This document shows positions 21,886 to 42,907 of a stretch of 64,000 nucleotides of DNA, piece by piece (the stretch's first letter is position 1; each line of letters opens with the position of its first letter). The translations under genes were made by a program, and so were the position numbers. Under the pieces are notes generated by a model, which was not told the DNA's origin, did no database searches, and saw only the letters and a list, made by a program, of their open reading frames with translations. The DNA comes from Candidatus Sulfotelmatobacter sp. (GTDB taxonomy: Bacteria > Acidobacteriota > Terriglobia > Terriglobales > Acidobacteriaceae): contig DATDGM010000140.1 in NCBI GenBank assembly GCA_036522075.1, positions 4,004 through 68,003 of the forward strand, in the 5' to 3' direction.

Positions 21886-22412
21886 CCCGAATCGGAATCG
21901 GTTCCGCGGGCGCTGTTGACTGGATCCTTATCCATCGATTGAATCTGGTAGTGGTTTGCCGATCCATTCACCGGCGCGATAAATCGATATCCCCGCCTTA
22001 AAGCGTCTCGACAAACCGAGGAATTCTCCGAATCATCATTCAGCGCTTGCCGGAGTTTCTTGACCGCGCTATTCAGGCTGAGGTCTCAGAAGTAGCTGTA
22101 CGGTGCTCGACGCTGATTTCCAATCGCGAAAACGTCGTTCGAGCAGACGCTATTCGGAGTGACAGAAAGGAGTCCTGCGGCGCAATTCGCCGCAGAGCTC
22201 CTTGGATCACGACAGAGCGAACCGTGAGAGCCGTGGCGAATGCGACTGCTTACCAAAACGAGTTCCTCTGACGCCGGCCGCAACGGATCGCCGGGAGGGC
22301 GACCGATGCTAAGATGGCATTTTAATTCCCGCAGCATCGGCAGGGCTTGGGACAAGCGATATGGCGAGGTCGGTGATGTTTTTCTTGTTGCTTCTTGTGA
22401 CCAACGCCTCAT
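21882..22412 (-). pseudogene. Decayed winged-helix (OmpR/CadC-type) regulator remnant
   Basis: The minus-strand 108-aa ORF ends at a TGA. The same frame continues DLSLNSAVKKLRQALNDDSENS...RRGYRFIAPV. The expected PRFVETL segment is only readable in a +1-shifted frame. Together this indicates an in-frame stop plus frameshifts. The remnant is paralogous to the N-terminal domain of 15455..18763. Confidence 0.45.
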
Positions 22413-23167
22413 TGGCCCTGCTATACCCTTTTAGCCACTCCCGGCTTCTTCTTGTGGCCGTAATTTACGGCGCCGTCACACTGCTCGTCCTCTACCTGTT
22501 GTTTCATCCGCGCAACCAATGGCTGGTCGCCAACCGGTCGCGGGTCGAGGGCGCGGGTTGCCTGGCCCTGACGTTCGACGATGGCCCGGATCCGGTGGAT
22601 ACGCCAAAATTACTCGACCTACTCCGTGAGAAAGGTGTGAAAGCAACATTTTTTGTGGTGGGGAAGCGGGCGGATCAATATCCGGAAATAGTGCGCCGCG
22701 CTTGGATGGAAGGGCACTTGGTCGCCAATCACACCTGGTCGCACTATTCTTTATTTTGTTTTCTCATGCCCCGTCGGCTGCGGGCTGAGATCGAACGTGG
22801 CACGGAGAGCGTTCGCCGCAGTTGTGGTTTCCGGCCGCGCTTTTTCCGCTCGCCGGTGGGCATGCGTCACCCGCTTCTGGGGCCTTATCTCAAGGATGCG
22901 GGGCTGGAGTATGTTTCTTGGACGATTCGGACGCGTGATACACTCACTGCGAATTCCAGCGTTCTGGCCCGTCGCATCTTGAAAGCGGCAAGCGGGGACA
23001 TCATCCTGCTGCACGATCATTTGCCTGGCGGGACGGATGCCATGCTGCAAGCCCTGCCTCGGGTCATCGACGAGCTCAGGCAACGGGGATTCGAATTCGT
23101 CCTGGCCGGCCCACGCGAGGATGCCGGGGGAACACTGGAGCCGCCGGCGTGCGAATCTGTGCCCTAA
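22361..23167 (+). CDS. Polysaccharide deacetylase (NodB homology domain) with N-terminal membrane anchor
   Basis: 268-aa ORF with hydrophobic N-terminal helices. NodB motifs are present: LTFDDGPDP, TFFVVG and ANHTWSH. Confidence 0.9.
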   Translation: MARSVMFFLLLLVTNASLALLYPFSHSRLLLVAVIYGAVTLLVLYLLFHPRNQWLVANRSRVEGAGCLALTFDDGPDPVDTPKLLDLLREKGVKATFFVVGKRADQYPEIVRRAWMEGHLVANHTWSHYSLFCFLMPRRLRAEIERGTESVRRSCGFRPRFFRSPVGMRHPLLGPYLKDAGLEYVSWTIRTRDTLTANSSVLARRILKAASGDIILLHDHLPGGTDAMLQALPRVIDELRQRGFEFVLAGPREDAGGTLEPPACESVP

Positions 23168-23823
23168 TTCCGGCATTCAATGAGGCTCCTCACATCGCCA
23201 AGGTTGTGGAAGGGGCCCGGCAGCATGTTGCTGAAGTCGTCGTGATCGACGATGGCTCCGGCGATGCGACGGCGGACATTGCCCGAAACGCCGGCGCTAC
23301 TTGTTTGCAATTGCCAAGAAATTGCGGCAAGGCCTCGGCCCTGCGTGCCGGCATCGCTTTCGCGCGCGACCACAACTTTACCTACGCGATCACCCTCGAT
23401 GGCGATGGCCAGCATCTGCCGGAGGATATCCCGGCCATGCTTCGCGTCGCCGACGAAACTGGAGCGGACCTGATCATTGGCGCGCGCCGTTTCGATCGCG
23501 CCCTCATGCCTCGCTCCCGCTATTTCTCGAACATCATTGGCAGCCGGTTGGCATCGGCGCTCATTGGCTGCGAAATCCGCGACAGCCAGAGTGGATTCCG
23601 GTTATTCCGACTGGACAAACTTGGCGCGGCCAAACTGCGGAGCCGGTGCTACGAGCTCGAGATGGAAATCCTGATCAAGATGGCCCGGTCGGGCTGCACC
23701 ATTGCGCATGCTCCCGTGCGCATGATTTACGACGATGGCGAGGCGCGCTCCAAGATGAAGCCTGTCAGGGATACGGTGCGTGTCTGTCTATGGTCGTTGG
23801 CATTTCGCTTTCTGGGAGCGTGA
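23149..23823 (+). CDS. Family 2 glycosyltransferase (Dpm1/ApeJ-like)
   Basis: 224-aa ORF with a GTG start overlapping the previous gene by 19 nt. Motifs ALIPAFNEAPHI, VVVIDDGSGDAT and TLDGDGQH are present. Confidence 0.9.
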   Translation: MRICALIPAFNEAPHIAKVVEGARQHVAEVVVIDDGSGDATADIARNAGATCLQLPRNCGKASALRAGIAFARDHNFTYAITLDGDGQHLPEDIPAMLRVADETGADLIIGARRFDRALMPRSRYFSNIIGSRLASALIGCEIRDSQSGFRLFRLDKLGAAKLRSRCYELEMEILIKMARSGCTIAHAPVRMIYDDGEARSKMKPVRDTVRVCLWSLAFRFLGA

Positions 23824-23913
23824 GATGTTGCGGCGATTCAGACTGTTATGCGCTCCGCTCGCGTCCTTGATTTTTTCGGGGTTGCTGGCCGCCCAGTCCA
23901 ACGACCTTGCTGA
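23743..23913 (+). repeat. Copy A of a ~170-bp direct duplication (3' end of GT2 gene plus a truncated LolA-like signal-peptide ORF)
   Basis: It aligns by eye over its full length with 33869-34035. Shared blocks include GCTCCAAGATG, GCGTGTCTG, GGCATTTCGCTTTCT, GCGATTCAGA, TATGCGCTC, CTGGCCGCCCA and CTGCTGA. Copy A encodes a 44-codon ORF (23825-23959), MLRRFRLLCAPLASLIFSGLLAAQSNDL..., which mirrors the N-terminus of the LolA-like protein at 33948. Confidence 0.8.
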
Positions 23914-23970
23914 CCCCCATCTGGGAGGAGGCGGCACGGCGTTTGTGATGGGGAGATAGTAGCGAGCGGC

Positions 23971-25122
23971 GTGGTGTCGGCCTCATGGCCAAGCGGACCA
24001 CGGAAAGGCCACCAGGTGATCCGAGCATTTGAGGCTCAAGCCCGCAAGTTCATAACCCTCTTGCTAAAGGAGAGGCTTGACCCAGGCCGCGCTGCCGCCG
24101 CCGTATTCCTGGGAATTTTCATCGGCATTGTGCCCATCTACGGGTTTCAAACTCTTGCCGCAGTGGGCGTGGCTTTGCTCTTCAGACTTAACAAGCCCCT
24201 GACCGTGGCCGGAACCTTCATCAACAATCCGATGCTCCAGCCCCTGATTGTTGTCTCCTCAGTGGAACTGGGCTGTTTGCTCCGCGGCGGCTCATTCCAA
24301 CCTCTGTCCGCCGTGGCTATCGCGCCCACACATCTCAGCAAGGAGCAGCTTTTCATCTGGGTGATTGGCAGCGTGGCACTGGCTATCCTGGTCGGCGGCG
24401 TTGGGGCGGCGATTACTGCGGTTGTGGTCCATCTTCATCGAAAGGCGCCTGCCAATTCGCTGTTGCGGGAGCGCGTCCGCTTTGTGAACGGGATGTTTGC
24501 CCAATGCGCGCGACCGGCTCGCGGCTTCGTCCGCTGGAAACTCCGGCTGGATCGGATCTTTGAATTACTTGCCGCCGAAAACCTGGGATCGGGAACGGTA
24601 GTGGATCTGGGCTGCGGTTACGGCATGGCTCTTTGTTTTGCGGCTTTCGGCGACAACCGCCGGCGCCTGGTGGGGTGCGACTTAGATGCCCATCGCATCG
24701 CCGTCGCTCGCCAGGCACTCGGCACCCTGAACGCAGATGTGACCGTAGCCGACATCCGTCATTTCGACCTTCCGCCAGCCGGTTTAATTTTAATTCTGGA
24801 TGTCTTGCAGTATTTGCCCGCGGCTGAGCAACCGGCCCTGCTGAAACGTTGCTGCTCGGCGCTCGCGCCAGACGGAATTTTGGTTTTTCGGGTCCATGAT
24901 CGCGAACGCGGCCTCCGGTCCGCGATCACCATGGCTTTCGAGCGGTTAATCTTCGCGTGCGGGGGCGACGGCTTCCGGCCCCGAATCCTCTCCATCGCCG
25001 AGTACCGCAGCGCGCTGGAGGACGCCGGTATGAAGTTGGAAGAGCGCCGTTTCCAGAATCGTTTGCCCCTGGCCCACGTTCTATTCGTCGCCAGAAAATC
25101 TTTGGCGGAAGCTGCGCGATGA
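23971..25122 (+). CDS. DUF2062 membrane domain fused to class I SAM-dependent methyltransferase
   Basis: 383-aa ORF. The N-terminus has GIFIGIVPIYGFQTLAAVGVALLFRLNKPLTVAGTFINNP, the DUF2062 pattern. The C-terminus has VVDLGCGYGM (SAM motif I) and ILILDVLQYLP. Confidence 0.85.
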   Translation: MVSASWPSGPRKGHQVIRAFEAQARKFITLLLKERLDPGRAAAAVFLGIFIGIVPIYGFQTLAAVGVALLFRLNKPLTVAGTFINNPMLQPLIVVSSVELGCLLRGGSFQPLSAVAIAPTHLSKEQLFIWVIGSVALAILVGGVGAAITAVVVHLHRKAPANSLLRERVRFVNGMFAQCARPARGFVRWKLRLDRIFELLAAENLGSGTVVDLGCGYGMALCFAAFGDNRRRLVGCDLDAHRIAVARQALGTLNADVTVADIRHFDLPPAGLILILDVLQYLPAAEQPALLKRCCSALAPDGILVFRVHDRERGLRSAITMAFERLIFACGGDGFRPRILSIAEYRSALEDAGMKLEERRFQNRLPLAHVLFVARKSLAEAAR

Positions 25123-25228: not shown

Positions 25229-26449
25229 TTGCCTCTCTTGACTGATATCCATAAAACCATCGTCGTTACCGGCGTCGGGGTCGTCAGTCCCTATGGCGTC
25301 GGGTTGGATTGCATGCAGGCGGGCATGTTATCGGGCAAGTGTTGTCTGGCGCCCACGAAGGATCTGTATCCCGGCTTCGAAGGAACGACGGCCCAGGTCC
25401 GGGGATTGCCGCTTTTGGCGGAAGACTCGAGTTCCCGATACTCGCGCACGGATCAACTCGCGACGGCGGCGGCGCAGGACGCAATGGCGCACACCGGTCG
25501 CGATGGCTCTGCCTTCCGGGAGAGCGGCGTTGTGATAGCGAACACGGTCGGGGGCTTGACCGAGATCGACACCGGAATCGCCAAAGATCCGGCGGCTTGG
25601 TTTCGGCGACCCGGCAATCTGTTGCGCGTCGCTTCATATCCGTTCGCGCACGTTGCCGACGCCGTTGGTGAGCATTTCGGGATTCGCGGACCGCGCTGTG
25701 CCATCTCTGTGGCTTGCGCATCCGGAGCGACGGCGATCGCACTGGCTGCCAACATGCTGCTCGATGGGGCCGCGCCCATTATCCTGGCAGGCGGCAGCGA
25801 CCCGCTGTGCCCGTTCACGTTGAGCGGATTTAACTCCCTGCGAGCCTTAGACCCAAACCCCTGCTCTCCCTTCGACCAGAATCGCAAGGGCCTGAACCTG
25901 GGCGAAGGATCCGCAATTCTCGTACTCGAAACCCTGGCCGGGGCCACCGCGCGTAATGCCAACGTTATGGCCGTGCTGCGCGGATGGGCCATGACCAATG
26001 ATGCATTTCATACCACCGCGCCACAGGAACAGGGAATCGGGTTGGCCGATTGCATACGCCTTTCCATGGAAATGGCGGAGGTGAGCGGCGATGAGATCGA
26101 GTATGTGAATGCCCACGGCACGGGCACACCTCTCAATGACATTGCCGAGGCCACCGCCTACGAGACCGCTTTCCGGGGACGCAAGCATCCCATTCCTGTA
26201 TCTTCGACAAAGTCATATTTCGGACACTGCCTGGGTGCGGCTGGCGCCTTGGAGGCAGCCATTACGATCATGGCCGTTCGTTCAGGAGCACTGCTTCCGA
26301 CGCTGCGGCTCGTCGATCCCATCGAGAGCCCCGGCGTTGACTGGTTGAGAGGAGAAGTGAAACGCCAGCCGCTGCCGCTGGCCATGTCGGTTTCCAGCGG
26401 CTTTGGCGGCAGCAACGCCGTGCTCATATTCGGGAGTGGTCCCTCGTGA
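25229..26449 (+). CDS. Beta-ketoacyl-ACP synthase (FabF/KAS II-like, catalytically complete)
   Basis: 406-aa ORF with a TTG start. It has the active-site block ISVACASGATAI, the His motifs HTTAP and NAHGTGTPLND, and KSYFGHCLGAAG. Confidence 0.95.
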   Translation: MPLLTDIHKTIVVTGVGVVSPYGVGLDCMQAGMLSGKCCLAPTKDLYPGFEGTTAQVRGLPLLAEDSSSRYSRTDQLATAAAQDAMAHTGRDGSAFRESGVVIANTVGGLTEIDTGIAKDPAAWFRRPGNLLRVASYPFAHVADAVGEHFGIRGPRCAISVACASGATAIALAANMLLDGAAPIILAGGSDPLCPFTLSGFNSLRALDPNPCSPFDQNRKGLNLGEGSAILVLETLAGATARNANVMAVLRGWAMTNDAFHTTAPQEQGIGLADCIRLSMEMAEVSGDEIEYVNAHGTGTPLNDIAEATAYETAFRGRKHPIPVSSTKSYFGHCLGAAGALEAAITIMAVRSGALLPTLRLVDPIESPGVDWLRGEVKRQPLPLAMSVSSGFGGSNAVLIFGSGPS

Positions 26450-27519
26450 CTCCGAATTTAGCGCCCGTCATTATTACCGGTGTCGGTTCCGTGAGTCCTT
26501 ATGGCCCGCTGGCAGGCCTAATTCCACAGAGTCCCCTGGAACCCACTACGATTACCGCCTGGACAACCGCCGGGCTGCGCCGCGCCTTTCTCGTACCGGC
26601 CTTTCGCCCTGCCAGCGTAGTGCCGGGCCTGAAGACGAGGCGTCTCGATCGCCTGTCGGCGTGGGCCTTGGTGGCCTCCGCCTTGGCTATTAAGGATGCT
26701 GGGATCGACCTAAACCAAGTGGACCGATCCCGGGTTGCAGTTATATTCGCCACCGCCTTCGGCTGTGTTGAACTCACGGAAGCGTTCTACCTCAGCGCTG
26801 CCGCCAATGGCTGGAACGGAACCGATCCCAGCACCTTCCCGGAGACTCTCCCCAGCACCCCGGCTAGTCACGTGTCTCTGTTTCACGGCCTGCGCGGGCC
26901 TAACGTCACCGTGAGTAACAAGGACTTTGCGGGCGAGAACGCCCTGATGCAAGCCGCTTCTCTGCTTCGCCATGGTCAGGCCGACTTGGCCATTGTCCTG
27001 GCGGGTGACACGCTGTCGCAAAGCCTCTATTCATGGTATGACGTGGCAGCCGTACTCTCGCCGGCGTGCTACAACTCGGATCCCGTACCGGAAGCCGGTG
27101 GTTTTATCCCCAGCGAAGGTGTAGCGGCATTGGTGATGGAATCGTCGGGCCGCGGGGATATCCGCTCCGGCGCCCGTTCTTATGCCCGACTCTGCTCGGG
27201 CCGCTGGGCAGCGGGCGGTCAACCGGCGGAGATGATCCGGCAGATGCTCGACGGATCCGTCCCAAGTCTGACAGTGTGCAGCGGGAATGGCGCGCCTTGT
27301 GCCACCAGTCCTACAACCGCCTTGGCTCGCGAGATTTCCGGCGATGGCGCCGTTATTATAAGTCCACAGACGTTTGCCCTGGGTTTGGCCGGTACGGGCG
27401 CTCTTTTTCACTTGATCCTGGCGTTAAGCAGCCGGCCCGTCCATGGGCAAGCCCTGTTCTTAGCAACCGCCGGCCATAGTGGATTTGCAGCACTTCTTCT
27501 GGAGTTGCTTGCAATATGA
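26446..27519 (+). CDS. KS-like partner subunit lacking the active-site Cys (chain-length-factor/ApeC-like)
   Basis: 357-aa ORF overlapping the KS stop by 4 nt. It has the thiolase-fold pattern GPNVTVSNKDFAGENALMQAASLLRHGQADLAIVLAGD. By my alignment to GP..TACA.G, Asp sits where the catalytic Cys should be. Confidence 0.8.
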   Translation: MTPNLAPVIITGVGSVSPYGPLAGLIPQSPLEPTTITAWTTAGLRRAFLVPAFRPASVVPGLKTRRLDRLSAWALVASALAIKDAGIDLNQVDRSRVAVIFATAFGCVELTEAFYLSAAANGWNGTDPSTFPETLPSTPASHVSLFHGLRGPNVTVSNKDFAGENALMQAASLLRHGQADLAIVLAGDTLSQSLYSWYDVAAVLSPACYNSDPVPEAGGFIPSEGVAALVMESSGRGDIRSGARSYARLCSGRWAAGGQPAEMIRQMLDGSVPSLTVCSGNGAPCATSPTTALAREISGDGAVIISPQTFALGLAGTGALFHLILALSSRPVHGQALFLATAGHSGFAALLLELLAI

Positions 27520-28514
27520 ATGTGCGCATTGCAGCCGCGGCGTATGCCGTTCCGCCCGACGATGAGGCCGTGGAAGCAGTCTTGGCGCGGGAACGAACTC
27601 GAGTGGAGACAACGCTTTCTGTGTTGAGCCCGGAGTCGAGACGAAGAGCCCTGGAAGGTCTCGGACTGAATCGCGTCCGCATCTGCGGCGACAAGAAACT
27701 TTATGACTTGATTCTCGAAGCCGCCTCCAAGGCGATAGCCGAAGCGGGGATAACCGCGCGTGACATTAATCTCATCCTCGATTACAGCACCTTGTCCAGC
27801 GAGAGCTCACAGGGTCTTTCGTTCGCGCACCAACTCAGCGCCGATCTAGGGGCTGAAACCGCGATGATCTTGAGTTTTAAAGCCGGCGGATGCGCGGCAC
27901 TTCACGTCGCCATCAAGACCGCGCTGGGCTGGATGACTACGGATGAAAGCATTCAGACAGTCTTGCTGGTCACTGGCGACGCCGCACCGCCAGGCAACCG
28001 CTCGTTGCTTCCTATCACCATGCATGGCGACGCCAGCAGTGCCGTCATTCTGCGCCGCCAGGCCACGGAGGGCCCTTCGCTGTTGGGCGTTGAAGCCATG
28101 ACGCTCGGTCACCTTCATAATGCGATTGCCCTGGTCAGAACCAACGGCCACCTCGATATTATGGTCGATGCTCTATGCATTGAGCGAGAGGTAATGCCGA
28201 TCTACTTTCTCAACATGCTTCTGGTAGTGAATAAGGCGCTGGCCGCGTCTTCCTTGAGTTTGACTGATATTGACCATTTCATCTATTCCAACATCAGCCT
28301 GCGGGACCGCGAGGGTTTCCGCAAGATGCTGGGACTGCCCAGGGGCAGCCTGCCGCCGACTCCCATGGCAGAATATGGCCATACCTTTGCCAGCGACTTA
28401 GTCATCAATTATGTGAATATGCGGCGCGAGGGGCTGATTCGTCCCGGGCAATTGTTGCTGTTCGCATCGGCTGGCGTCGGCTTCACCTGGGGAGTAACGC
28501 TTGCCCGAGCCTGA
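27516..28514 (+). CDS. KAS III (FabH)-like enzyme with non-canonical catalytic residues
   Basis: 332-aa ORF with a 4-nt overlap to the previous gene. The Cys motif FKAGGCAALHVAIKTA is present. The region equivalent to HQAN reads YSNISL, and the GNTSAAS equivalent reads YGHTFASD. Confidence 0.8.
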   Translation: MNVRIAAAAYAVPPDDEAVEAVLARERTRVETTLSVLSPESRRRALEGLGLNRVRICGDKKLYDLILEAASKAIAEAGITARDINLILDYSTLSSESSQGLSFAHQLSADLGAETAMILSFKAGGCAALHVAIKTALGWMTTDESIQTVLLVTGDAAPPGNRSLLPITMHGDASSAVILRRQATEGPSLLGVEAMTLGHLHNAIALVRTNGHLDIMVDALCIEREVMPIYFLNMLLVVNKALAASSLSLTDIDHFIYSNISLRDREGFRKMLGLPRGSLPPTPMAEYGHTFASDLVINYVNMRREGLIRPGQLLLFASAGVGFTWGVTLARA

Positions 28515-28661: not shown

Positions 28662-29486
28662 ATGCGTCGCATACAGTTCATCGAACTCCATGAGCAACCC
28701 TGGTTCCCGTCATCGCTTCGAGATGACGTTACGGATGCGGTTCAGTTTGGCTTCAACCTCCTGCAGGCCTACGCGCCCATCGCCCCGCTGCTGCAAAACG
28801 TGATTGACTCCACGAGGAACGGGACAAACGCCGGCCGATCGATTATCGATATGTGTTCTGGCGGAGGCGGTCCGTGGCCGGATCTTTCTCGAAAGCTGCG
28901 ATGCCGGGACGACGGAGGGGATTCCGCGGGCCTGCAGGTTTGGCTCACCGATAAATATCCGAATCTCGAGGCTTTCCAAAGTGTTAGCGCGTCTTCTGAC
29001 CACCACATTACCTTCTATCCGGAGTCGGTTGACGCGATGAAGGTTCCGGGCGCACTGAAGGGGCTGCGTACCATGTTTACGTCGTTCCATCATTTTTCGC
29101 CGGAGGATGCTCGCGCCATTCTGCAGGATGCCGTCGATGCTGGCGAAAGCGTCGGCATTTTCGAGATCACCAGGCGCTCTCCGTCAACAATCGGAGTTAT
29201 TTTCGTCGGCATTCTCCTGATGTTTTTGCATACTCCCAGGATCCGTCCCTTCCGCTGGACGCGATTGCTGTGGACATATTTGATTCCGATCATTCCCTTG
29301 GTCCTGCTATTCGATGGAGTGGTGTCTTGCCTGCGCACCTATCGTCCACAGGAACTGCGTGAGATCGTAGAAAAACTGACCTCTTGCCAATACCAATGGG
29401 AGATCGGTGAGCTAGCCACTGGAAGGGTGCCAATTACCTATCTGATCGGATACCCCGGCGCATCGTCCTACGAATTAAGCCGATAA
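28662..29486 (+). CDS. Putative SAM-dependent methyltransferase with C-terminal membrane helices
   Basis: 274-aa ORF. IIDMCSGGGGPW resembles SAM-binding motif I. The C-terminus has hydrophobic helices (IGVIFVGILLMFL, LLWTYLIPIIPLVLLFDGVV). Confidence 0.65.
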   Translation: MRRIQFIELHEQPWFPSSLRDDVTDAVQFGFNLLQAYAPIAPLLQNVIDSTRNGTNAGRSIIDMCSGGGGPWPDLSRKLRCRDDGGDSAGLQVWLTDKYPNLEAFQSVSASSDHHITFYPESVDAMKVPGALKGLRTMFTSFHHFSPEDARAILQDAVDAGESVGIFEITRRSPSTIGVIFVGILLMFLHTPRIRPFRWTRLLWTYLIPIIPLVLLFDGVVSCLRTYRPQELREIVEKLTSCQYQWEIGELATGRVPITYLIGYPGASSYELSR

Positions 29487-29743: not shown

Positions 29744-30808
29744 TCACCGAGCTAACCCTAGAGTGGAAACCAAACCCAGAAATGCGCGGCTCGCCCACCC
29801 CACCGGATCGAGCAACACTGTGCGCCGCTCCAGCATGGCGGCAACCGGCTGTCCCTTATAGCTGGCGATTTGCCGGTAGCGCGAGATGAAAAACAGCACG
29901 CGCAAAAAAAGTTTCCATTTGAGCGGGGCAAAATAATCGGGCGTCACGAACGGCACCGCGTGGCCGTCTTTCACTTCGGCAATGAAGTCCTTGAAAGTTG
30001 CCGCGCGGGAAAGAGAGGTAACGGAACTGGCGACCAGCAGATGGCTGTCTCCTCCGCCGACCACCGGTTTGCGCCACTGGCGGGCAAGTTCCAGGACGCG
30101 ATCGTTCTCCTCTCGTGGCCGCATCCCGTTTACTTCCAATGCATGAATCGCCCAGCCGTAGCGGGAGAGCAGCTCCGTCACCGGAATCGCGTCCACTTTC
30201 GGTTCCCAGGCTACAAGAGGATGGTTCAAGACGACCAGGCAGCCGCTCGCGGCGAGGGTTTCAAACAATTCGTCGTAGCGTCCACCCCGCGCAGCCGCTT
30301 GCATTCGAGAGTGCGTTTCCTCGACTTCACTCTCAGGCAGGCCACTTACTCCCAGGTGAAACAAGTGTCCCTGGAACCAGAGTGAGAGCTCCTCGCTGAC
30401 TGCGACGCGGCCATCCAGATCGGGCCGGCTGCGTAGCAGAGCGAGGCTGCCGGCAAATTCGTCGTGATCGGTAATGGCCAGGTGGACCCCATCGAAGCCC
30501 CAATTGGCCGCCGCCGCTGCCTCCATCTGATAAACCTCTTCGGGGGTATAAGGAGGATTGAACGTTATCTCTGCGTAATTCAGATCAGACACACCGCCCA
30601 GGCCAAACGCCCTTTGCAAAATGCTACTAAGAGGACGCATGTAAGCCAGCTTGACCACCTGGTTTAATGCCGCCAGCTTCTCCACGGAGTGGCAGGAGTG
30701 GTTGTGCAGGGAAACCGAGTAGCCGAACTCGCGGTCCGGGTGGGGACACTCGCGGTAGGTATAGTTCTCGATCTTCCAGGCTGACCGGCGTCTCATTCCA
30801 GCGTTCAC
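29744..30808 (-). CDS. PHP-family metal-dependent phosphoesterase
   Basis: 354-aa ORF with PHP-type His/Asp motifs: SLHNHSCHS, LAITDHDE, VVLNHP and GGGDSHL. Confidence 0.8.
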   Translation of the reverse strand: MNAGMRRRSAWKIENYTYRECPHPDREFGYSVSLHNHSCHSVEKLAALNQVVKLAYMRPLSSILQRAFGLGGVSDLNYAEITFNPPYTPEEVYQMEAAAAANWGFDGVHLAITDHDEFAGSLALLRSRPDLDGRVAVSEELSLWFQGHLFHLGVSGLPESEVEETHSRMQAAARGGRYDELFETLAASGCLVVLNHPLVAWEPKVDAIPVTELLSRYGWAIHALEVNGMRPREENDRVLELARQWRKPVVGGGDSHLLVASSVTSLSRAATFKDFIAEVKDGHAVPFVTPDYFAPLKWKLFLRVLFFISRYRQIASYKGQPVAAMLERRTVLLDPVGWASRAFLGLVSTLGLAR

Positions 30809-31568: not shown

Positions 31569-33668
<2,100 letters not shown>

Positions 33669-34577: not shown

Positions 34578-35026
34578 TGATCAAGCCCAGGGTGATTGAG
34601 CGGAGTGAAATCGAGACGCTGATTCCCCATCGCCCTCCGTTCTTGTGGATCGACCGTGTCGAAGAACTGGAGCCGGGAGTTCGTTGTGTTGCGGTGAAGT
34701 TTGTCGATCCGGCGAACCCGATTTTTGCCGGGCATTTTCCTGCCAAGCCCATTCTGCCGGGGGTTCTTCTGATCGAAGCGGTGGCCCAGACCGCTGGAGT
34801 AATGCTGGGATCATCCGCGCCGCAGGTGACTGCGGGAAGCGGGGGAGGAGTAGCCCTGCTCGCGGCCGTGAACCGCTTCAAGTTTCTCAAGCCCGTGACT
34901 CCGGGGCAAACACTTCGCGTTGAAACCAAAAAGCTAACCGAGGCTGGCCAATTGGTATGCATCGGCGGCACGGTGTGGGTAGACGGCGAGGTGGTAGCGA
35001 AGGGCGAGTTGTCGGTGTCGGCTTGA
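34577..35026 (+). CDS. FabZ/FabA-like 3-hydroxyacyl-ACP dehydratase (hot-dog fold)
   Basis: 149-aa ORF with a GTG start overlapping the previous stop by 1 nt. HRPPFLWIDRV...FAGHFPAKPILPGVLLIEAVAQ carries the catalytic His and Glu context. Confidence 0.9.
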   Translation: MIKPRVIERSEIETLIPHRPPFLWIDRVEELEPGVRCVAVKFVDPANPIFAGHFPAKPILPGVLLIEAVAQTAGVMLGSSAPQVTAGSGGGVALLAAVNRFKFLKPVTPGQTLRVETKKLTEAGQLVCIGGTVWVDGEVVAKGELSVSA

Positions 35027-35094
35027 TGGACGAGCGGTGAGCGGGCCTACGATGGAAAGCGCCACCCGATGATCCGAACATTTCAACCACGCGT

Positions 35095-37704
35095 GTGGGC
35101 GTTCGCATGATGACCCGTTGCATGCGCTGGGTGGGCGGCCTGGTGGTAGGCCATCCGGGGTTGGTTACAGCCCTGAGCCTGGTCGTTACCTTATTGTTGT
35201 ATGCGAACATCCACAACCTGCGAACCGGCACCGACCTGACCGATTTGTTTGGGAATCGCGACCCACAATGGCGAGCCGCGAGCCAGATCGGCAAAGAACT
35301 GGGTTATGGCAATCAGCTCTTCGTGCTGATCGAGGCTCCGGCGGGTCGAACGGAAAATGAAACGGACGTCACCGGCCAAATGGAAGACATGGCCGACCGT
35401 CTGACCGCCGACATGCAAGCCAGCGGGCTGTTCCTGGATGCGCGCTGCGGCTTGCAGGACGAAGAACTGCTCAACATGGTGCGGTTCTTTACCTGGAACT
35501 TTCCGTCATTCGCGCTGCCCGAGCAAACCGAAGATTTGAAGCGGCGGCTGGATCCGCGACAGATTCATCAAAGCGTTCGCCGCGCGGGAAGCGAACTGGT
35601 CACTCCATTCTCATCATTGGGAACCAATTACTTCGTCGCCGATCCTTTGGGCCTGATGGAAGTGGAGGGAAACCGCCAGGGATTTTCGCAGTTTGCCAAA
35701 TTCGACCTCAACTGGGGGTCTGGAAACCGGTTCTTCAGTAAAGATCACAAGGCGCTGCTCATCATTGCCGAACCTCGCCAGTCGGCTATGGATTACAAGT
35801 TCGCCGAGCAAGTGATGCGGTGGACGCGGGAGCACATCCAGTCGATGACGGCGCAACCCGACTTGCGAGACTCCGGAGTGCGGGCGATTGCAGCGGGGGC
35901 TTACGTTTACGCGGAGCAGGAGCACAAGCTCATCGAAACAAATATCCGCCGAATTTCCCTCATTTCCATCGTGGGAAATCTGCTGTTGTGCCTGCTGATC
36001 TATCCGAGGATTCCACTCCTGCTTTTATCGCTGCTGCCCGCCAGCCTGGGCATTGTTTGGACTACGGGCGTAGCCAGTTTCTATCCGGGAGAAGTAAATC
36101 TGATCAGCCTGTCTTTTATTGCGATCCTGGCGGGGCTGGGCGACGACCAGGTCGTACATTTCTTCAACCGGGTTCCGCAGGAGTGGGCCAAGGATGAATT
36201 CACGAATGAGCGCACGCTGAATGATGCGGTGCTACGCACCTACGAAACCACCGGGCTTAGCGTTGTCCTCTGCATAGTAACGGCGGCCACCGCAACCGCC
36301 TCACTGGCCACCGCCAGTTTCAAGGGACTGGCGGAGTTCGGGTTCATCCTGACGGTGGGAATGTTCATGATGATGGTCCATACGCTGCTGACGGTTCCGG
36401 CGCTGATGCGGCTGTGGTGGCGAGTTTCGAAGCCGCGCGCGCCGCAGACCATTACCTTCCGGTTGCTTCCCTGGGTGGCGCAGAAATCGGTTGATTTTGT
36501 GGGCCGGCACGCCCGCCTTGTAGTCGGCTTGGGCTGCGGAATGTTCCTGCTGTCATTAATGTTTCTGCCGGCCATCAAAATGGGAAAGCACTTCGAGATC
36601 GCTGGCGCCGATAACCCTGCCGTGGCGGCGCAGAACCTGCTTTCCGCAAGGTTCGGCATCGAGGGCAGTCCGAACGTGCTCCTGATCTCCGGCGGCGAGC
36701 AGGAAGCACTGGGTAGAGCCGAAGAATTGACGGCCGGGCTGGAAGCCTATCAGCATCGCGGGGTCATCAAGTCCATCTTCTCACCGACAACGCTGCTCCC
36801 GTCAGTTCGAACACAAAGTGAACGAGCCCGTTCGTTGGCCGGCGTCAATCTGGCGGCCTCGGCTCGTGCCCTCGAGGATTCGCTGCGCGAGAATGGTTTT
36901 CGAACTGAGCAGTTCCAGCCCTTTATCGATCGGTTGCGAAAGCTAGGACAAGGGCTGGGACAAGGCGGTGATGCGATTACCCTGGAAACTGCCGCCAAGT
37001 TCCTGCCGCCAGGAGTGCTGGACAACAGCATTCGCAAGACCGGGGACGGTAGCTACGTGGCGGCCATCACCTTTTATGGTGCCGATCCCGATGCTGTCGA
37101 CGTAGTTCCGGAAAGTGTCATCCAGTCCTGGCAAAATCAATTTGGCCGGTTCGTGGAGTTCTCCTTCGACAAGATGAACCGCGACCTGCAGAGGCAAGTG
37201 CTTCATGACAGTAGCAGAGCATTAGTGTGGACGGCGGCTGGCATTCTGTTGGTTGTCTACCTTTGTTTTCGCAACCTCCGCGTGTCATTCATCGTGCTGA
37301 TCCCGATCGCATTCGGCATTGTTACAACTTTCGGCCTGCTGCTGTTGGTGAGGCACCGCTTCAGTTTCATGTCGATTACGGCGATTCCGCTCATCATCGG
37401 CATTGGCATCGACAATGGCATCCATTTGGTGCGCCGATACCAGGAGAACGAGCGGAACGAAATCCTCGCGATCGCCAAAGCTTCGGGCGCGGCGCTGATT
37501 CAATCGAACCTGACTACGATCGTTGGGTTCGGGGCGCTGATGACTTCCAGTTTCGCGCCGCTTGTGGAAATGGGCCTGGTGACTTCGTTGGGGGTCGCGC
37601 TCGCACTGGCCGGTGGCTTGTTGTTGATTCCCGCTGTTATTCTGCTTGGGGAACGGCGCCGTACAGCGACGGCCTTGCCAGCAACGAGTGCGAGCGAGGG
37701 TTGA
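35095..37704 (+). CDS. MMPL/RND-superfamily lipid exporter (ApeL-like)
   Basis: 869-aa ORF with two blocks of multiple TM helices, each preceded by a large soluble loop. This matches MMPL/HpnN-type transporters. The start may instead be ATG 35107. Confidence 0.85.
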   Translation: MGVRMMTRCMRWVGGLVVGHPGLVTALSLVVTLLLYANIHNLRTGTDLTDLFGNRDPQWRAASQIGKELGYGNQLFVLIEAPAGRTENETDVTGQMEDMADRLTADMQASGLFLDARCGLQDEELLNMVRFFTWNFPSFALPEQTEDLKRRLDPRQIHQSVRRAGSELVTPFSSLGTNYFVADPLGLMEVEGNRQGFSQFAKFDLNWGSGNRFFSKDHKALLIIAEPRQSAMDYKFAEQVMRWTREHIQSMTAQPDLRDSGVRAIAAGAYVYAEQEHKLIETNIRRISLISIVGNLLLCLLIYPRIPLLLLSLLPASLGIVWTTGVASFYPGEVNLISLSFIAILAGLGDDQVVHFFNRVPQEWAKDEFTNERTLNDAVLRTYETTGLSVVLCIVTAATATASLATASFKGLAEFGFILTVGMFMMMVHTLLTVPALMRLWWRVSKPRAPQTITFRLLPWVAQKSVDFVGRHARLVVGLGCGMFLLSLMFLPAIKMGKHFEIAGADNPAVAAQNLLSARFGIEGSPNVLLISGGEQEALGRAEELTAGLEAYQHRGVIKSIFSPTTLLPSVRTQSERARSLAGVNLAASARALEDSLRENGFRTEQFQPFIDRLRKLGQGLGQGGDAITLETAAKFLPPGVLDNSIRKTGDGSYVAAITFYGADPDAVDVVPESVIQSWQNQFGRFVEFSFDKMNRDLQRQVLHDSSRALVWTAAGILLVVYLCFRNLRVSFIVLIPIAFGIVTTFGLLLLVRHRFSFMSITAIPLIIGIGIDNGIHLVRRYQENERNEILAIAKASGAALIQSNLTTIVGFGALMTSSFAPLVEMGLVTSLGVALALAGGLLLIPAVILLGERRRTATALPATSASEG

Positions 37705-37710
37705 TTGGGA

Positions 37711-40700
37711 ATGACGGCTTCACTCAGGCTGCTCTACCGATTGGCGAGGTGCAGGCGAGTGGGGCCGATTCTGCTGCTTCTGGCCGTTCTGCTTTTACCG
37801 CTGACAGCGGAAGCCGGCCTGCCGCGAGTCGCGATCTCGATTCCGACGGACCAGAACCTTGCCGTGGGATTGAAAGCCGCCGAGCAGTGTAACGTTCCGG
37901 AAAAATTGATCGTGCTGCCACCGCTGTCTTTCGATTTCGCGGGCGGGGAAAGCTCCGCCAGCATTCTTGAAGAGCCAGCCGTGCAGAGCGTGCCCGAAGG
38001 TGTCGAGATCTGGCTGCATGTAGTGGTGGAAGCCGGTTTACTCGCTGGGGGGGAATCCGAGCAGGAAATTACCGAGCGGGTTGATGCGTTTGTGAAATCG
38101 CTGCCTCTCTCGGCGACCGCGGTGCGTGGGCTTTTGGTGGAGATTAAAGGAGCGATGGGGGCGCCCGACCTGTTCGCGTTCGGGTTGGTGCGCCTGGCAT
38201 TAGCCGCGAAGGGCGACAACGCCGGCTTGCGGCTCGCGTTTGTTTTTCAGCCTGGGTTTGTCGGAAGTCACGGCGATATTGTAAAGAGGCTTGCCGTCTA
38301 TTCCGATCTGCTGGGAACTACCTATGCCGAGGGCTGGCGCCAGGATGCTGCGTGGATTGCCGAGCGGGCGCTGAATAAACCGGTCATTCTTAAATTAGAT
38401 GCCGGAACGTCCGCGACACCCTCGCCTTTCTTGACGGCGATGCTCGCTGCCGGCGGGACCTCGGTAGAAATTGTCTGGGCGCAGCCACCCGACGGCAAGG
38501 CCGCCGCTGCTTTGTGCGCGGCAAACACCTTCATGAGCCGTTTCATCACGAGCAATATGTTTGCGGAGGATTCCGCGGCTTCCCCGTTCAGTGTCGCGGT
38601 GGAAGGCGTGGGAAACAATGAGCACCGATGGTTCAGCGGTCCCGCGGATGTGGTGATTGTGGCGCGCGTGAATGCGAGCCCCGACTCACCGAAGACGGTC
38701 AGGTTACAGAGCGCTAAGCCGGGACCATTCGAGATCCGGTGGTACGACCCCGCGACCGGCGCCGAACTCCCGGCAGGCGAAGTGACGAAGGCTGAACATG
38801 GTTTCGCGCAAACCTGCGCCTGCACCAGCGAATACGCACTGATTTCCATCCACAAACAGAGTGAGGCCGATCAGACGCTGTACAACACAGTGGAGGTTAA
38901 GAGCGGAGTCGATCTAAGGGTGGAGGAGATTATCGCTCGCTGGCAACAGAATCGCGAAGCGCAGAAGCAGAAGCTGGAAAATTATATGGCCTCCAGTTTC
39001 ATGAGCCTCCATTTTGAAGCCACCAATCTGGGGCCGGGGTTCGACTTTTCGATGCAGCTCAAGCAATTCTTTAGCCGGAACGGCCAGATGGAACTGGCGC
39101 AAAAAGAGTTTTACATTAACGGGGTGAAGTTCGGTAAGAATCATGAGTTTCCCTTGCCGCAGATCGAGCCGGAAAAAGTGCTGACCCAGCCCCTCGAATT
39201 GAAGCTCAACGAGCGCTATGACTACAAATTGCTCGGGACCGAACAGGTGGACGGGGCCATGTGCTACGTAGTGGCAGTCGAGCCCAAGGTGCAGGACGAG
39301 GCGCTTTACAGCGGCAAGATCTGGATCGACGCCAGTACTTTTCGCGAGGTGAAGCAGTACCTGAGCCAGCGCGGCGTCAAAAGTAACGTGCTGGTAAACG
39401 TGGAGACACAGAATTTTGAGCTAGTTCGCGACGACAAGGGAAATCAATTCAACTTGCTGCACTCGATTTCCGCGCAGCAGTTGTTGAACGCCGCGGGACG
39501 TGATTTTGTGGTGCAGAGAACGGTGAAGTTTTCGGACTACGTCATCAACGCTCCGAACTTCAGTAGCAGCCTCGCGGCTGAGCATAGTTCTGAGGACCCG
39601 ATGTACCGCGACACCGACCAGGGACTGCGTTCGCTGCGGAAGAAAGCCGGCGAGCGCGTTCTCGTGGACAAGAGTGTGAAGCGCATCAAGTCTCTGGTTG
39701 CGGGCGCGATGTACGGAGGCACGTTCAACTTTCCTGTTCCATTCCTCGGCGTCAGCATCGCGGATTTTGATTTTCACCACACTGGCGCGCAACTTTCAAC
39801 CTTCTTTGCCGGGCCTATCCTGATTTCTGACTTGTCCAAGCAGTTCAGGCCCAAGTTCCGCCTCGCGCTGGATTTGTCGCTGAACGGCCTGCCCGGCCAG
39901 AACCGCATTTACGGCAATAACACGGAATTGGTGCAAGGAGAGACCTGGACATGGGAGCAAACCACCGGGGTGCGCGCCTCGTGGCAAGCCGCCACTCATC
40001 TCAGCGTAACGGGCTCCACCTACTTCTCGTATGACAACTTCCTCCGGACTAACCTGGCGGACGAGGTATACGAACTGCCGCGCAACGGATTGAACATTCT
40101 TCCGGGCATCGAAATAAAATACAACCGCAAAGGTTATGTGTTCGATGCGCAGGGGACACGGGGCGAACGCATTGACTGGAGGCGGTTCGGCTGCACTTCG
40201 CTGGCCCCACCTCCGGGTGGGTGTGGGTCGTCATCCGCCAACCCGCCGCCCGAAAACGCTTTGCTGGTTCAGCGTCCGCAAAATGCGTTCACGCTCTACA
40301 ACGCCGATTTGAACAAGGACTACTACATCGGCAAGTTCACCAAGGGCGGATGGGATCTTTCTTACTGGGGCGGAGATCAACTGGATCGCTTCTCGCGTTA
40401 CTTCCCCTCGTTTCTTGCGTCGCCGCGTCTCCACGGCATTCCCCCCGGCACGGATTCATTTGACGCCATTGCCATGGCGAACGTGCACTACGGTTTCAAC
40501 GTGATGGATTTCATGAAGGTCGATGGGATGTACGCATATGCGCGCGCGCGCAATCTGGATGAGTCGCTTCAATTCCGCAAGTTTGACGGCTTGGAGGTTA
40601 ACTTCAACACCCCTGGTCCTATGGGGACGCTGGTGCAAGGCACGGTCTCCTATGCGCTGGACGGGAATCTCGCGCGCTACAACTCCCGTTGGGCCGCCTA

Positions 40701-40728
40701 TATTTTGATCTTCAAGCCGATGCACTAA
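37711..40728 (+). CDS. Large secreted protein: N-terminal unknown domain, central LolA-like lipoprotein-sorting domain, C-terminal putative beta-barrel
   Basis: ORF 37705..40728. I prefer ATG 37711, which has GAGGG 11 nt upstream and starts just after the MMPL stop. Signal peptide is [15 protein letters not shown]. The central [47 protein letters not shown] matches the LolA_like sorting-protein pattern. The C-terminal ~400 aa are rich in alternating aromatic and Gly residues. Confidence 0.8.
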
Positions 40729-40738: not shown

Positions 40739-41515
40739 ATGACTGAAACAAACGTGGCTAATCGCACCGGTGATGGTAGCGAAGATCGGAAGGTCGCATT
40801 AGTCACAGGCGCCTCGGGGATTATCGGCGGCGCCATCGCGCAGGCTCTGGGAAGCGCGGGGTTCCGCGTCGCCGTGCACTATCGTCACGGGAAAGAGTCC
40901 GCGGTTGCGGTGGTCGAGCGCATCGTGGCCGCGGGCGGAGAGGCTTCGGCAGTGGAAGCCGACCTCTCCCGCCAGGAGAGTGTTGCGCCTATGTTCGAGC
41001 GCATCGAACATCAATTTGGCCCAGTCGACTACCTGGTAAATAACGCGGGCATCAACCGCGATGTGCTATTGGCTTTTATGTCGGAGGAGCAGTGGGATGA
41101 AGTAATCGACACCAATCTCCGTGGCACTTATTTGTGCTCGCGGTTGGCCCTGCCGGGCATGATGCGCCGGGGGAGTGGAGCCATTTGCAATATCGTGTCA
41201 CCCGCCGGAATTCGCGGCCAGTCCGGTCAGTGCAATTACTCGGCATCCAAAGGCGGCATGATCGCGTTCACCAAGGCTCTTTCTCGCGAGGTGGGACCGT
41301 TCCACATCCGAGTAAACGCCATCTGCCCGGGTGTGATTCCGAGCCCTATGTCCGCAAAATACATTGAGAAAGAGGAGAAGCGACTGCTTTCCGAAATCCC
41401 GCTGGGGCGGTTTGGCAAGCCTGAAGAAGTGGCTCCGCTGGTAGCGTTCCTGGGGTCCGAGGAGGCAAGTTACATCACCGGACAGGTGATCTCTGTGGAT
41501 GGGGGACTGCTGTAG
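40739..41515 (+). CDS. 3-oxoacyl-ACP reductase (FabG-like SDR)
   Basis: 258-aa ORF with the cofactor motif [16 protein letters not shown] and the catalytic YSASKGG (YxxxK). Confidence 0.95.
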
Positions 41516-41661
41516 CTTGGGTTCTTGCGAGGGACGAAAGATCACGGTCATCAGGGAGACGAAGCCACACGAAGGGCAGCTTCCAGAGGGCCTTTCAGGA
41601 GAGTTCGTGTTGATTTCGCCGGTGAGCTTTGTGGTATTCTGGGGCGTTGCAAGTGAACGAT

Positions 41662-41928
41662 ATGGCAAGCGTTAAGGAGCAACTCAAGGCCATTATATTG
41701 AAGAGCTTGCGGATCACCGACTTGACCCCCGAGGATCTGCGCGACGATCAGCCGCTGCTCGGAGGAGAACTGGAAATCGACTCCATCGACATACTCCAAC
41801 TCATTCTGGAGATTGAGAGGCATTTCGGCATCAAGCTGGTACAGGCCAACTTCAACCAGAAAAACCTCGAAAGTGTTAACGCTTTGGCGGCGATCATCGA
41901 ATCCAAAGTAGCGGAAGCAAAGACCTGA
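41662..41928 (+). CDS. Acyl carrier protein
   Basis: An internal ATG at 41662 gives an 88-aa protein with the phosphopantetheine attachment context LGGELEIDSIDILQLILEIE. Confidence 0.9.
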   Translation: MASVKEQLKAIILKSLRITDLTPEDLRDDQPLLGGELEIDSIDILQLILEIERHFGIKLVQANFNQKNLESVNALAAIIESKVAEAKT

Positions 41929-41995
41929 CATCCCAAATCTTTGGGATTGAATCCCCCCTTATCCAAGCAAAAGTTCTCCAGATCGCGGGCGGAAA

Positions 41996-42907
41996 GTGAC
42001 GCGCTGGTACGAGCACCGTTTTCATAACCCAACGGCGCTGCGGATGATATTTGTCATCATGCCGAGGCTGCCGCGCTTTCTCCATCCTCCGGTTGCGGCG
42101 GTGGTGGCGCTGATCTTCTTTTTGATCATGAAGCGGGAACGGCGCGCGGTAACCGGAAATCTGCGCCGGGTCTCGGGGAAGAGCGGGCTCGCACTGCAGC
42201 GAAAAGTTTATTGGGTTTTCTATTCTTTCTGCGACCTCATGGTTTCCTATTGTTTTGTCCCACAGGCCACACCTTCGCAACTGCTGGGCATGCTGGTGGA
42301 TTCGGAGGGGGGCGGCGCCAAGATCGACCAATGCCTGGCGGCAGGCAATGGGGTCATTGTGTGGACCGCGCATGTAGGGAATTGGGAATTCGCGTCGCGG
42401 CTGCTGGCAATTTACGGCCGGGTTAACGTGGCGCGGGTGGTTGAGGACAATCCGGCGGAGATCACACTGCGGAATTTGATGGCTAGCGAACGGTTGAAAA
42501 TTGTGGATCTCAAAGGGGGTGTGACGGCTACGATAGAACTCTTACAGGCCTTGCGTCGAAACGAGATCGTGGCGATCCAAGGAGACCGCGTTTACCAGCG
42601 TCACACTTTCGACGTGCCGTTTTTTTCCCAACCCACCAGCTTTCCGCTTGGCCCTTTTCTGCTTTCGCGGGTCTCGGGCGCGCCGGTGCTGCCCGTTTTC
42701 GTGATTCGCCGGGGTTGGCTGCGCTACCAGACTCTGATAGGAGATTTGATCCCGGCGGTTCCGTCACGGGTCACTAGCGGTGACGACGATGCCGGCTTGC
42801 ACGAGGCTATGCGCCAGGCGGTCAGCTTTCTGGAAAAAACATTGACCACTTATTACGATCAGTGGATGAATTATTTCGATTTTTGGCCGGTTGCCTCTCG
42901 GGACTGA
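41996..42907 (+). CDS. LpxL/HtrB-family lysophospholipid (lipid A-type) acyltransferase (ApeD-like)
   Basis: 303-aa ORF with a GTG start and an N-terminal hydrophobic anchor. It has the WTAHVGNWEF (Hx4E/D) motif and IQGDR. Confidence 0.85.
   Translation: MTRWYEHRFHNPTALRMIFVIMPRLPRFLHPPVAAVVALIFFLIMKRERRAVTGNLRRVSGKSGLALQRKVYWVFYSFCDLMVSYCFVPQATPSQLLGMLVDSEGGGAKIDQCLAAGNGVIVWTAHVGNWEFASRLLAIYGRVNVARVVEDNPAEITLRNLMASERLKIVDLKGGVTATIELLQALRRNEIVAIQGDRVYQRHTFDVPFFSQPTSFPLGPFLLSRVSGAPVLPVFVIRRGWLRYQTLIGDLIPAVPSRVTSGDDDAGLHEAMRQAVSFLEKTLTTYYDQWMNYFDFWPVASRD

Follow-up and report, generated by a model that had tools for sequence, protein, structure and literature searches.

The 64-kb stretch of Candidatus Sulfotelmatobacter sp. 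DNA analysed here (GCA_036522075.1, contig DATDGM010000140.1; the whole stretch is called the window) contains a block of 17 intact genes over ~20 kb at positions 22361-42907. The block is read as a lineage-specific acidobacterial variant of the envelope-lipid machinery of aryl-polyene lipid (APEL) clusters, one that would lack an aryl starter and would probably be coupled to tail-to-tail chain fusion by a homolog of the radical S-adenosylmethionine (SAM) enzyme Tes; this combined reading is given an even chance. Its first part, APEL-like assembly and export without an aryl starter, is considered likely, and the odds on a functional involvement of Tes in the cluster are judged to be balanced. 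Homology and gene neighbourhood are the grounds on which every functional step is inferred.

The genes were defined by an open reading frame (ORF) listing and profile searches of the window, and all lie on the + strand except that of the PHP-type protein. The NodB-family deacetylase and family 2 glycosyltransferase (GT2) genes overlap by 19 nt, the ketosynthase (KS) gene and that of its partner by 4 nt, the partner and KASIII-like genes by 4 nt, and the LolA-like and FabZ genes by 1 nt; the MMPL gene and the gene of a 1007-aa secreted protein abut. The original prediction had described such a block with many short overlaps, and every ORF that it listed was found in place with its domain assignment upheld.

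APEL-like gene set

A relation to aryl-polyene-type clusters had been proposed, and blastp against the ape cluster of E. coli CFT073 bears it out by linking the GT2, the LpxL-like protein, the acyl carrier protein (ACP), FabG and the KS to ApeJ, ApeJ, ApeE, ApeQ and ApeO/R, respectively. The FabF-like KS (25229..26449), assigned by Pfam, has an intact Cys-His-His active site and is 31% identical to ApeR and to ApeO. It scores 288 bits against the NCBIfam fabF model, below the cutoff of 494, and 220 bits against FabF in the PDB compared with 133 bits against ApeO. Its KS-like partner of the chain-length-factor type (26446..27519) is matched in Pfam only by the ketoacyl-synt N-domain. The partner has Asp at the Cys position (D/G/D/Y among orthologs) and lacks both His, in agreement with the predicted pairing of a KS with a Cys-less protein, and by these residues it is catalytically dead. 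It shows no BLAST similarity to E. coli ApeC, and a tblastn search of plasmids returned only an unrelated aromatic type II polyketide synthase in Azospirillum. The KS heterodimer of PDB entry 9S5H scores well; a literature search on this entry found nothing.

The KASIII-like thiolase-fold protein (27516..28514; Pfam ACP_syn_III_C) had been taken for a starter enzyme. Alignment to E. coli and Yersinia FabH shows that its Cys is kept and that Ser stands in for His244 and His for Asn274, and the protein of a related locus (L084; L numbers denote loci from other genomes) has identical active-site residues (Cys, Ser, His). The Cys-His-Asn triad of the initiating condensing enzyme KASIII (FabH) is therefore absent, and because His and Asn are replaced, the protein is not a canonical starter condensing enzyme. 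A DarB-like or OleA-like role also came into consideration for it, as did a BioC-like one for the methyltransferase.

The FabG-type 3-ketoacyl-ACP reductase (40739..41515) passes NCBIfam NF009466 (260 against a cutoff of 222) and is 41% identical to ApeQ. The FabZ-type 3-hydroxyacyl-ACP dehydratase (34577..35026) passes NCBIfam PRK00006 (129 against 113); it has weak ApeI/ApeP-like Pfam matches, and its similarity to ApeI is weak (27% identity over 77 aa). The dedicated, ApeE-like ACP (41662..41928, with 41662 probably the start) has a PP-binding domain, a PRK09184 match of 51 bits and 34% identity to ApeE by blastp. The His/Glu pair of FabZ, the DS motif of the ACP, the NodB motifs and the HX4E motif of the LpxL-like protein are all intact, and by their residues these four proteins look competent. 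The absence of an ammonia-lyase, an acyl-AMP ligase and a thioesterase, on which the original prediction had rested its view of the starter, holds for the cluster and for the rest of the 64-kb window, as does that of an enoyl reductase. A missing enoyl reductase alone does not imply a polyene.

Sugar-lipid functions are represented by three genes. The membrane-anchored NodB-family deacetylase (22361..23167) matches Pfam Polysacc_deac_1 (E=1e-30) and has TFDDG, HTWSH, RSPVG and LLHD motifs. It adjoins the GT2 gene here and in L089-L093. In L002, a long-read metagenome-assembled genome (MAG), the NodB and PHP genes are each split over two frames (6152-8065), which are probably assembly frameshifts and not true pseudogenes. 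The short GT2 (23149..23823), assigned by Pfam, is homologous to the N-terminal half of ApeJ (29% identity to residues 8-225, E=1e-27) and to lipid-phosphate sugar transferases; its best NCBIfam matches, PpgS and AglJ, are both below cutoff. The LpxL/PatA-type acyltransferase (41996..42907; Pfam Lip_A_acyltrans) aligns to ApeJ residues 261-549 (25% identity, E=1e-13), so that the glycosyl and acyl transferase functions of ApeJ are both represented, in two separate genes. Lipid A acyltransferase models give this protein at most 48 bits, the phosphatidylinositol mannoside (PIM) acyltransferase model 62 bits and ApeJ 61 bits. The GT2 matches ArnC weakly (38 bits), and NodB matches ArnD weakly (15.6 bits).

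The export genes comprise a carrier, a pump and a large secreted protein. The LolA-like periplasmic carrier (33948..34577, ~209 aa) starts at ATG 33948 with a signal peptide; it matches the NCBIfam flexirubin LolA2 model below cutoff (E=1.5e-14, 54 against 125), and its hhalign match to ApeL is not significant (E=0.023). The 251-aa LolA ORF first described contains this real gene, and its front part is a GT2 pseudogene relic read in fusion with it. The MMPL/RND lipid exporter (35095..37704; Pfam MMPL) is HpnN-like and ApeM-like: HpnN is its best NCBIfam match, with 198 bits against a cutoff of 752, and similarity to ApeM is weak (19-26% identity, E 3e-4 to 1e-3). DUF3261 (ApeN) is absent from the cluster, and the 1007-aa secreted protein (37705..40728) stands in its place. 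In this protein, LolA_like and DUF5686 matches fall below Pfam thresholds, with the weak LolA-like region at ~486-620. An AlphaFold2 (AF2) model reaches a pLDDT of ~80 only for residues 40-385, which are predicted to form a glycoside-hydrolase (GH)-like TIM barrel and beta-sandwich; Foldseek matches this part to GH66, GH79 and GH27 (E 5e-8 to 1e-5, low identity). Of the LolA-domain/barrel protein described earlier, the LolA-like region is sub-threshold and the C-terminal barrel is putative, and the one confident part is of the GH-like kind. Such an N-terminal third is unexpected for a presumed lipid-receiving outer-membrane component. The 1007-aa family is lineage-restricted, with only 478 homologs, and a tblastn search of plasmids gave no match.

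Comparison with known systems

In Xenorhabdus, ApeJ attaches N-acetylgalactosamine to a glycerol-phosphate lipid, after which it forms an ester between this sugar and the ApeE-bound chain; ApeM, ApeL and ApeN are proposed to export the APEL (bioRxiv 10.1101/2020.12.19.423268). By analogy, this pathway is the best template for the GT2, NodB, LpxL, ACP and MMPL/LolA part of the window. The block shares with the apeA-R genes of E. coli CFT073 and Xenorhabdus doucetiae a KS with an inactive partner, a ketoreductase (KR), a dehydratase (DH), a dedicated ACP, and the GT2 and LpxL-like functions of ApeJ (there in one gene, here in two). It also encodes an MMPL pump and a LolA-like protein, whose matches to ApeM and ApeL are weak and not significant, respectively. 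Unlike those clusters, it lacks ApeH, ApeK, ApeD, ApeG, ApeN, a second DH and a second ACP, and it comes from the phylum Acidobacteriota. Aryl starter activation, by ApeH or by an ammonia-lyase and CoA ligase, is not encoded within the window; nor are the ApeI/ApeP pair, the ApeK thioesterase or the ApeD acyltransferase, the single dehydratase passing the FabZ equivalog cutoff. The NodB enzyme, the DUF2062-methyltransferase, the non-canonical KASIII-like protein, the PHP protein, the 1007-aa GH-like/LolA-like protein and the Tes homolog are additions relative to the APEL clusters. By its sequences, therefore, the block is APEL-like in logic and fails several defining features of aryl polyene clusters.

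Bacteroidota flexirubin clusters, whose product is localised to the outer membrane, likewise have LolA2-like and FlxB-like proteins, an exporter, a GT2 and an acyltransferase. Compared through NCBIfam models, the flexirubin matches in the window are below cutoff (LolA2 54 against 125; FlxB 237 against 340), and the window lacks the tyrosine ammonia-lyase (TAL), 4-coumarate ligase and DarA/DarB of those clusters. As in HpnN/MmpL-type systems, an RND/MMPL transporter is present that would move a hydrophobic lipid from the inner towards the outer membrane; unlike HpnN, the pump of the window is accompanied by a LolA-like carrier and by the 1007-aa secreted protein.

The rhizobial acpXL-lpxXL cluster supplies an outer-membrane lipid with an acyl chain that spans the membrane; it has a dedicated ACP, FabZ, a KS pair and an LpxL-family transferase and is not known to include an enoyl reductase. 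The window resembles it, by gene content, in the ACP, FabZ, KS pair and LpxL family; the rhizobial cluster is not known to carry GT2, NodB, MMPL, LolA-like or radical SAM (rSAM) genes.

Tes homolog and its linkage to the cluster

The 699-aa rSAM protein (31569..33668) is, by sequence, a near-full-length homolog of archaeal Tes/GDGT-MAS. It aligns to profile positions 2-483 of 486 in the NCBIfam Tes model (NF045702) with 324 bits, below the equivalog cutoff of 450, and over residues 95-590 to GDGT-MAS (PDB 7TOL) with 230 bits. The CX3CX2C motif TNRCNMMCDPCF and further Cys residues are conserved, as is an N-terminal Zn-ribbon. Unlike archaeal Tes, the protein has a C-terminal extension of ~110 aa and is linked to an APEL-like export cluster. 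Acidobacterial Tes homologs, a family that includes the protein of the window, have been proposed for the synthesis of glycerol dialkyl glycerol tetraethers of the branched type (brGDGTs) (Zeng 2022), and tes and gms genes co-cluster in peat Acidobacteria (Garcia 2024; PMC11214058). Mss homologs have not been found in Acidobacteria. Reviews and studies up to 2026 report no demonstrated activity for a bacterial Tes, and bacterial Tes homologs are treated as candidates. No paper was found by a literature search that combined aryl polyene, Acidobacteria, radical SAM and brGDGT, nor was one found that links these genes to an aryl-polyene-type cluster.

Relatives of Tes occur in at least 600 species-level genomes. 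The Tes of the window falls in a separate sub-lineage, Tes-II (bootstrap 99%; 87% without two basal solitary contigs). Tes-II lies beside or inside the cluster in 12 sampled contexts (the window, L001, L002, L003, L084, L085, L088, L089, L090, L091, L092 and L093), which represent at least five architectures; L004 was too short and was left out of this judgement. Cluster proteins have diverged to 49-71% identity among the linked loci, and the outer flanks are unrelated. When loci were found through the 1007-aa protein, the island that contains Tes was adjacent in all three (Tes in L084 and L085, B12 genes in L083). The original prediction had suggested a modified, possibly membrane-spanning, exported lipid, and this idea is reasonable, since the Tes-like rSAM, PHP and 146-aa genes recur with the cluster in relatives.

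In most linked loci Tes belongs to a four-gene island of the order B12-rSAM(+), Tes(+), B12-rSAM(-), B12-rSAM(-), in which one B12 gene is HpnR-like. The island lies at L002:8148-15727, L084:1-4026, L088:8308-15386, L089:8501-15325, L090:8474-15270, L091:8613-15162 and L093:8457-15407. The B12-rSAM genes may encode methylases or cyclases that act on branched tetraether-type lipids; all three have been lost in the lineage of the window. In L090 (17391-20959), an 864-aa protein with two BcrAD_BadFG activase domains and a DUF2229 protein, candidate PlsA/Ger-like ether-lipid reductases, are encoded at a distance of two genes downstream of the island. MAG MFD03044.bin.2.26, labelled Bryobacterales, contains a Tes-II copy with B12-rSAM neighbours (L004) and a main-type Tes (L069), which suggests paralogy unless the bin is mixed.

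Gene-order history

In distant relatives found via the 1007-aa protein and via Tes homologs, the cluster is contiguous in the order NodB-GT2-LolA-FabZ-DUF2062MT-MMPL-1007aa-FabG-ACP-LpxL-KS-partner-KASIII, as seen in L084, L089 and L091. The window consists of two half-clusters, and five relics sit exactly at the junctions that this ancestral order predicts. After the GT2 stop lies a LolA 5' relic (23825-23908, +; tblastn 71% over 28 aa, E=4e-9), followed just before the methyltransferase gene by a FabZ 3' relic (23947-23970, +; an exact match of 8 aa to L084 FabZ); DNA repeat D1 supports the stretch 23825..23970, whose two relics remain from a deletion in cluster copy 1. Directly upstream of LolA is a GT2 3' pseudogene relic with an internal stop and indels (33827-33943, +; tblastn E=5e-10), which at the DNA level aligns with the 3' ends of GT2 from the window and from L084. 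A 5' relic of the DUF2062-methyltransferase gene with a stop codon lies between FabZ and MMPL (35015-35104, +; tblastn 43% over 30 aa, E=0.002). A KS 5' relic overlaps the LpxL stop (42891-42929, +; tblastn 61% over 13 aa); DNA repeat D2 pairs 25212-25266 with 42874-42928 at 76%, and in L084 the LpxL and KS genes overlap.

The position of the five relics indicates that the whole cluster was duplicated and that genes were then lost reciprocally, until each was left in exactly one intact copy. This is good evidence that selection has acted on the 14 core genes as one set. The derived (type B) order is common to the window, L001, L003 and L092. Tes is inside the cluster only through this duplication and reciprocal loss.

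The contiguous version ends (L084:18452-21250; also L083 and L085) with an adenylation domain, a 95-aa carrier protein and a PF00756 esterase, which together with the LpxL-like protein recall AlmEFG/Dlt-type aminoacylation. The adenylation domain is DltA-like, passes the amino-acid adenylation model TIGR01733 and is 24% identical to ApeH. No match to the adenylation domain, carrier protein, esterase or B12-rSAM genes was found anywhere in the window. The missing ligase of the window is a derived loss, as sister architectures keep the amino-acid-type adenylation domain, carrier and esterase.

Accessory genes, borders and surroundings

The gene at 23971..25122 fuses a DUF2062 membrane domain to a class I SAM methyltransferase (Pfam DUF2062, Methyltransf_25/23/11), and this fusion is kept in all relatives. 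A 274-aa protein with a SAM-binding-like glycine motif, IDMCSGGGG, and C-terminal hydrophobic membrane helices (28662..29486) has no Pfam match and a weak NCBIfam PRK06202 match (E=4e-4). It is limited to the rearranged type B lineage, with orthologs in L001, L003 and L092. The PHP-type (TrpH-like) putative metal phosphoesterase, at 29744..30796 (ORF to 30808), lies on the minus strand as had been noted and has invariant HxH, DHDE, H, H, E and DSH residues of the metal-ligand type; its PHP_C and CehA/McbA profile matches are weak, and its length is probably 350 aa. The PHP family is lineage-restricted, with 628 homologs, some labelled TrpH by JGI. Its genes adjoin Tes or the rSAM island at 7 loci, and L088 has one within the FabG-ACP operon. 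PDB sequence searches with the PHP and 274-aa proteins gave nothing meaningful. The 146-aa secreted protein (31012..31452), which has a signal peptide, has orthologs of 37-80% identity in L002, L089, L090, L091 and L092. A promoter scan of 28400-35200 found no sigma-70-like sites, and no terminator-like site was predicted between the Tes and LolA genes.

By synteny with relatives, the cluster is bordered by NodB and LpxL. Immediately upstream of NodB, and in the same orientation, are genes for a cytochrome P450 and a fatty-acid desaturase (19470-21885), and a UPF0182 gene lies downstream, none of which is kept beside the cluster in relatives; the P450 and desaturase are probably outside the cluster because they are absent beside it in L092 and L002. 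Two large Ser/Thr-kinase/TPR proteins, one with a fused OmpR-type DNA-binding domain, are encoded further upstream (12830-18763), and a TPR/OmpR-type regulator is likewise found upstream of the cluster in L002. At 57840-60347 a radical SAM/SPASM protein adjoins an NTP_transf_5 protein with an S24 peptidase nearby, which may form a small peptide-modification locus. One tRNA gene (11694-11784) is the sole Rfam match in the window. The nearest homologs of the rSAM, 1007-aa and PHP proteins come from soil and peat metagenomes, in MAGs named Terriglobales or Candidatus Sulfotelmatobacter, the latter being placed in Korobacteraceae by NCBI taxonomy.

Proposed pathway and competing explanations

In the proposed pathway, the KS with its inactive partner, FabG, FabZ and the dedicated ACP would build an ACP-bound acyl chain, for which the Cys-only KASIII-like protein may load or transfer the starter; enoyl reduction, if any, would be left to a housekeeping reductase. 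The GT2 would place an N-acetylhexosamine (HexNAc) on a lipid phosphate, by analogy to ApeJ, the NodB enzyme would remove its acetyl group, and the LpxL-like enzyme would move the ACP-bound chain onto the sugar. The two methyltransferase-like proteins and the PHP phosphoesterase could then tailor the product, and the Tes homolog could couple chain termini tail-to-tail to give a macrocyclic or membrane-spanning lipid. The MMPL pump, LolA-like carrier and 1007-aa secreted protein would carry the lipid to the outer membrane.

Several observations weigh against this proposal. Sequence identity to the Ape proteins is a low 25-41%, FabF is a closer match to the KS than ApeO is, and for ApeC, D, G, H, K, L and N BLAST finds no counterpart in the window. 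No usable AF2 model was obtained for the PHP protein or for the C-terminal 620 aa of the 1007-aa protein. In a neighbourhood survey that kept the 80 best-matching Tes loci, all of Acidobacteriota, 77 of the 80 (72-78% identity) lacked both cluster genes within 10 kb and conserved neighbours, and L087 and L094, which form one basal Tes-II lineage, are both solitary. Tes can therefore do without the cluster. Every linked case belongs to a single clade, most relatives have the rSAM island as a transcription unit of its own that is partly divergent, and inherited adjacency with local rearrangement could explain the linkage. A view of Tes as an incidental insertion, taken from the 77 solitary loci, was revised after the contexts of closer Tes-II relatives had been sampled.

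The main rival builds on these points and is held to be possible, at clearly less than even odds. It supposes that Tes and its B12-rSAM partners work as an independent tetraether-type module that makes iso-diabolic-acid or brGDGT-type lipids of the cytoplasmic membrane, with the cluster, itself still APEL-like in lipid assembly and export, as a mere, if persistent, neighbour through ancestry and local rearrangement. The phylum-wide occurrence of the homologs, the solitary loci and the usually divergent transcription of the island agree with it, as does the island of L090, which is followed by the PlsA/Ger-like pair and would fit a self-contained module. In addition, clusters of tes and rSAM (gms) genes in peat Acidobacteria have been read as genes for membrane-spanning lipids without an export cluster (PMC11214058). 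It is harder to reconcile with an adjacency that survives at least five architectures despite ~50-70% protein identity and unrelated outer flanks, with the retention of Tes and PHP between the half-clusters after duplication and loss while the B12 genes were lost, and with a PHP gene that bridges both modules.

Two further rivals rank below it as less likely. A genuine aryl-polyene or flexirubin-type pigment cluster, with its priming genes (ligase, ammonia-lyase or chorismate lyase) elsewhere in the genome, is thought improbable. Such a cluster would account for the KS with its inactive partner, KR, DH, ACP, ApeJ-like GT2/LpxL, MMPL and LolA-like genes, the sub-threshold flexirubin LolA2 and FlxB matches and the lack of an enoyl reductase gene, and E. 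coli likewise draws 4-hydroxybenzoate from primary metabolism (PMC8253772). It is opposed by the absence of an ApeH-like ligase, thioesterase, TAL, DarA/B and second dehydratase from the 64 kb, by the DltA-like, amino-acid adenylation type of the ligase that relatives keep in place of an aryl type, by a FabZ and FabG that pass housekeeping-type equivalog cutoffs, and by the closeness of the KS to FabF. Equally doubtful is a fatty-acid pathway dedicated to the modification of lipid A or a comparable glycolipid, like the rhizobial acpXL-fabZXL-fabF2XL/fabF1XL-lpxXL genes, in which NodB and the GT2 would add an ArnC/ArnD-like aminosugar. The ACP, FabZ, two KS-like genes, LpxL-family acyltransferase and lack of an enoyl reductase resemble the rhizobial set, and the weak ArnC and ArnD matches point the same way; yet the LpxL-like protein scores no better on lipid A models than on PIM or ApeJ, no ArnT-like transferase is present, and an MMPL/LolA-like export route is not known to serve lipid A.

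A bolder form of the APEL-like reading with Tes is rather unlikely. It takes the whole supercluster, that is, the APEL-like genes, PHP and Tes-II, joined in relatives by three B12-rSAM genes and in one locus by the PlsA/Ger-like pair, as an assembly, tailoring and outer-membrane export line for the iso-diabolic-acid/brGDGT-type membrane-spanning lipids of peat Terriglobia. If this were true, the cluster would build a hexosamine-phospholipid on which Tes-II would fuse chain termini, the B12 enzymes would add the C5/C6 methyl groups or rings of palaeotemperature proxies, and the MMPL, LolA-like and 1007-aa proteins would deliver the lipid to the outer membrane.

Implications

With this cluster, the range of APEL-type lipid machinery would come to include Acidobacteriota, in a form that lacks an aryl starter, and its history clearly illustrates how duplication and reciprocal loss can reshape a cluster that keeps one copy of each gene. 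brGDGTs are widely used in the reconstruction of past temperature and pH, and their biosynthetic genes and main producers are still unproven. Among cultured strains, Ca. Koribacter versatilis Ellin345 and Ca. Solibacter usitatus Ellin6076 both produce lipids of the methylated iso-diabolic-acid or brGDGT kind. In this acidobacterial lineage of peat and soil, a separate Tes sub-family has kept a persistent link to a cluster for fatty-acyl synthesis, sugar-lipid anchoring and outer-membrane export, and in relatives also to three B12-radical-SAM enzymes. The locus thereby offers a testable gene-set lead on bacterial tetraether-type (brGDGT) lipids, and it raises the possibility that membrane-spanning lipids may be assembled on a glyco-phospholipid and then exported.

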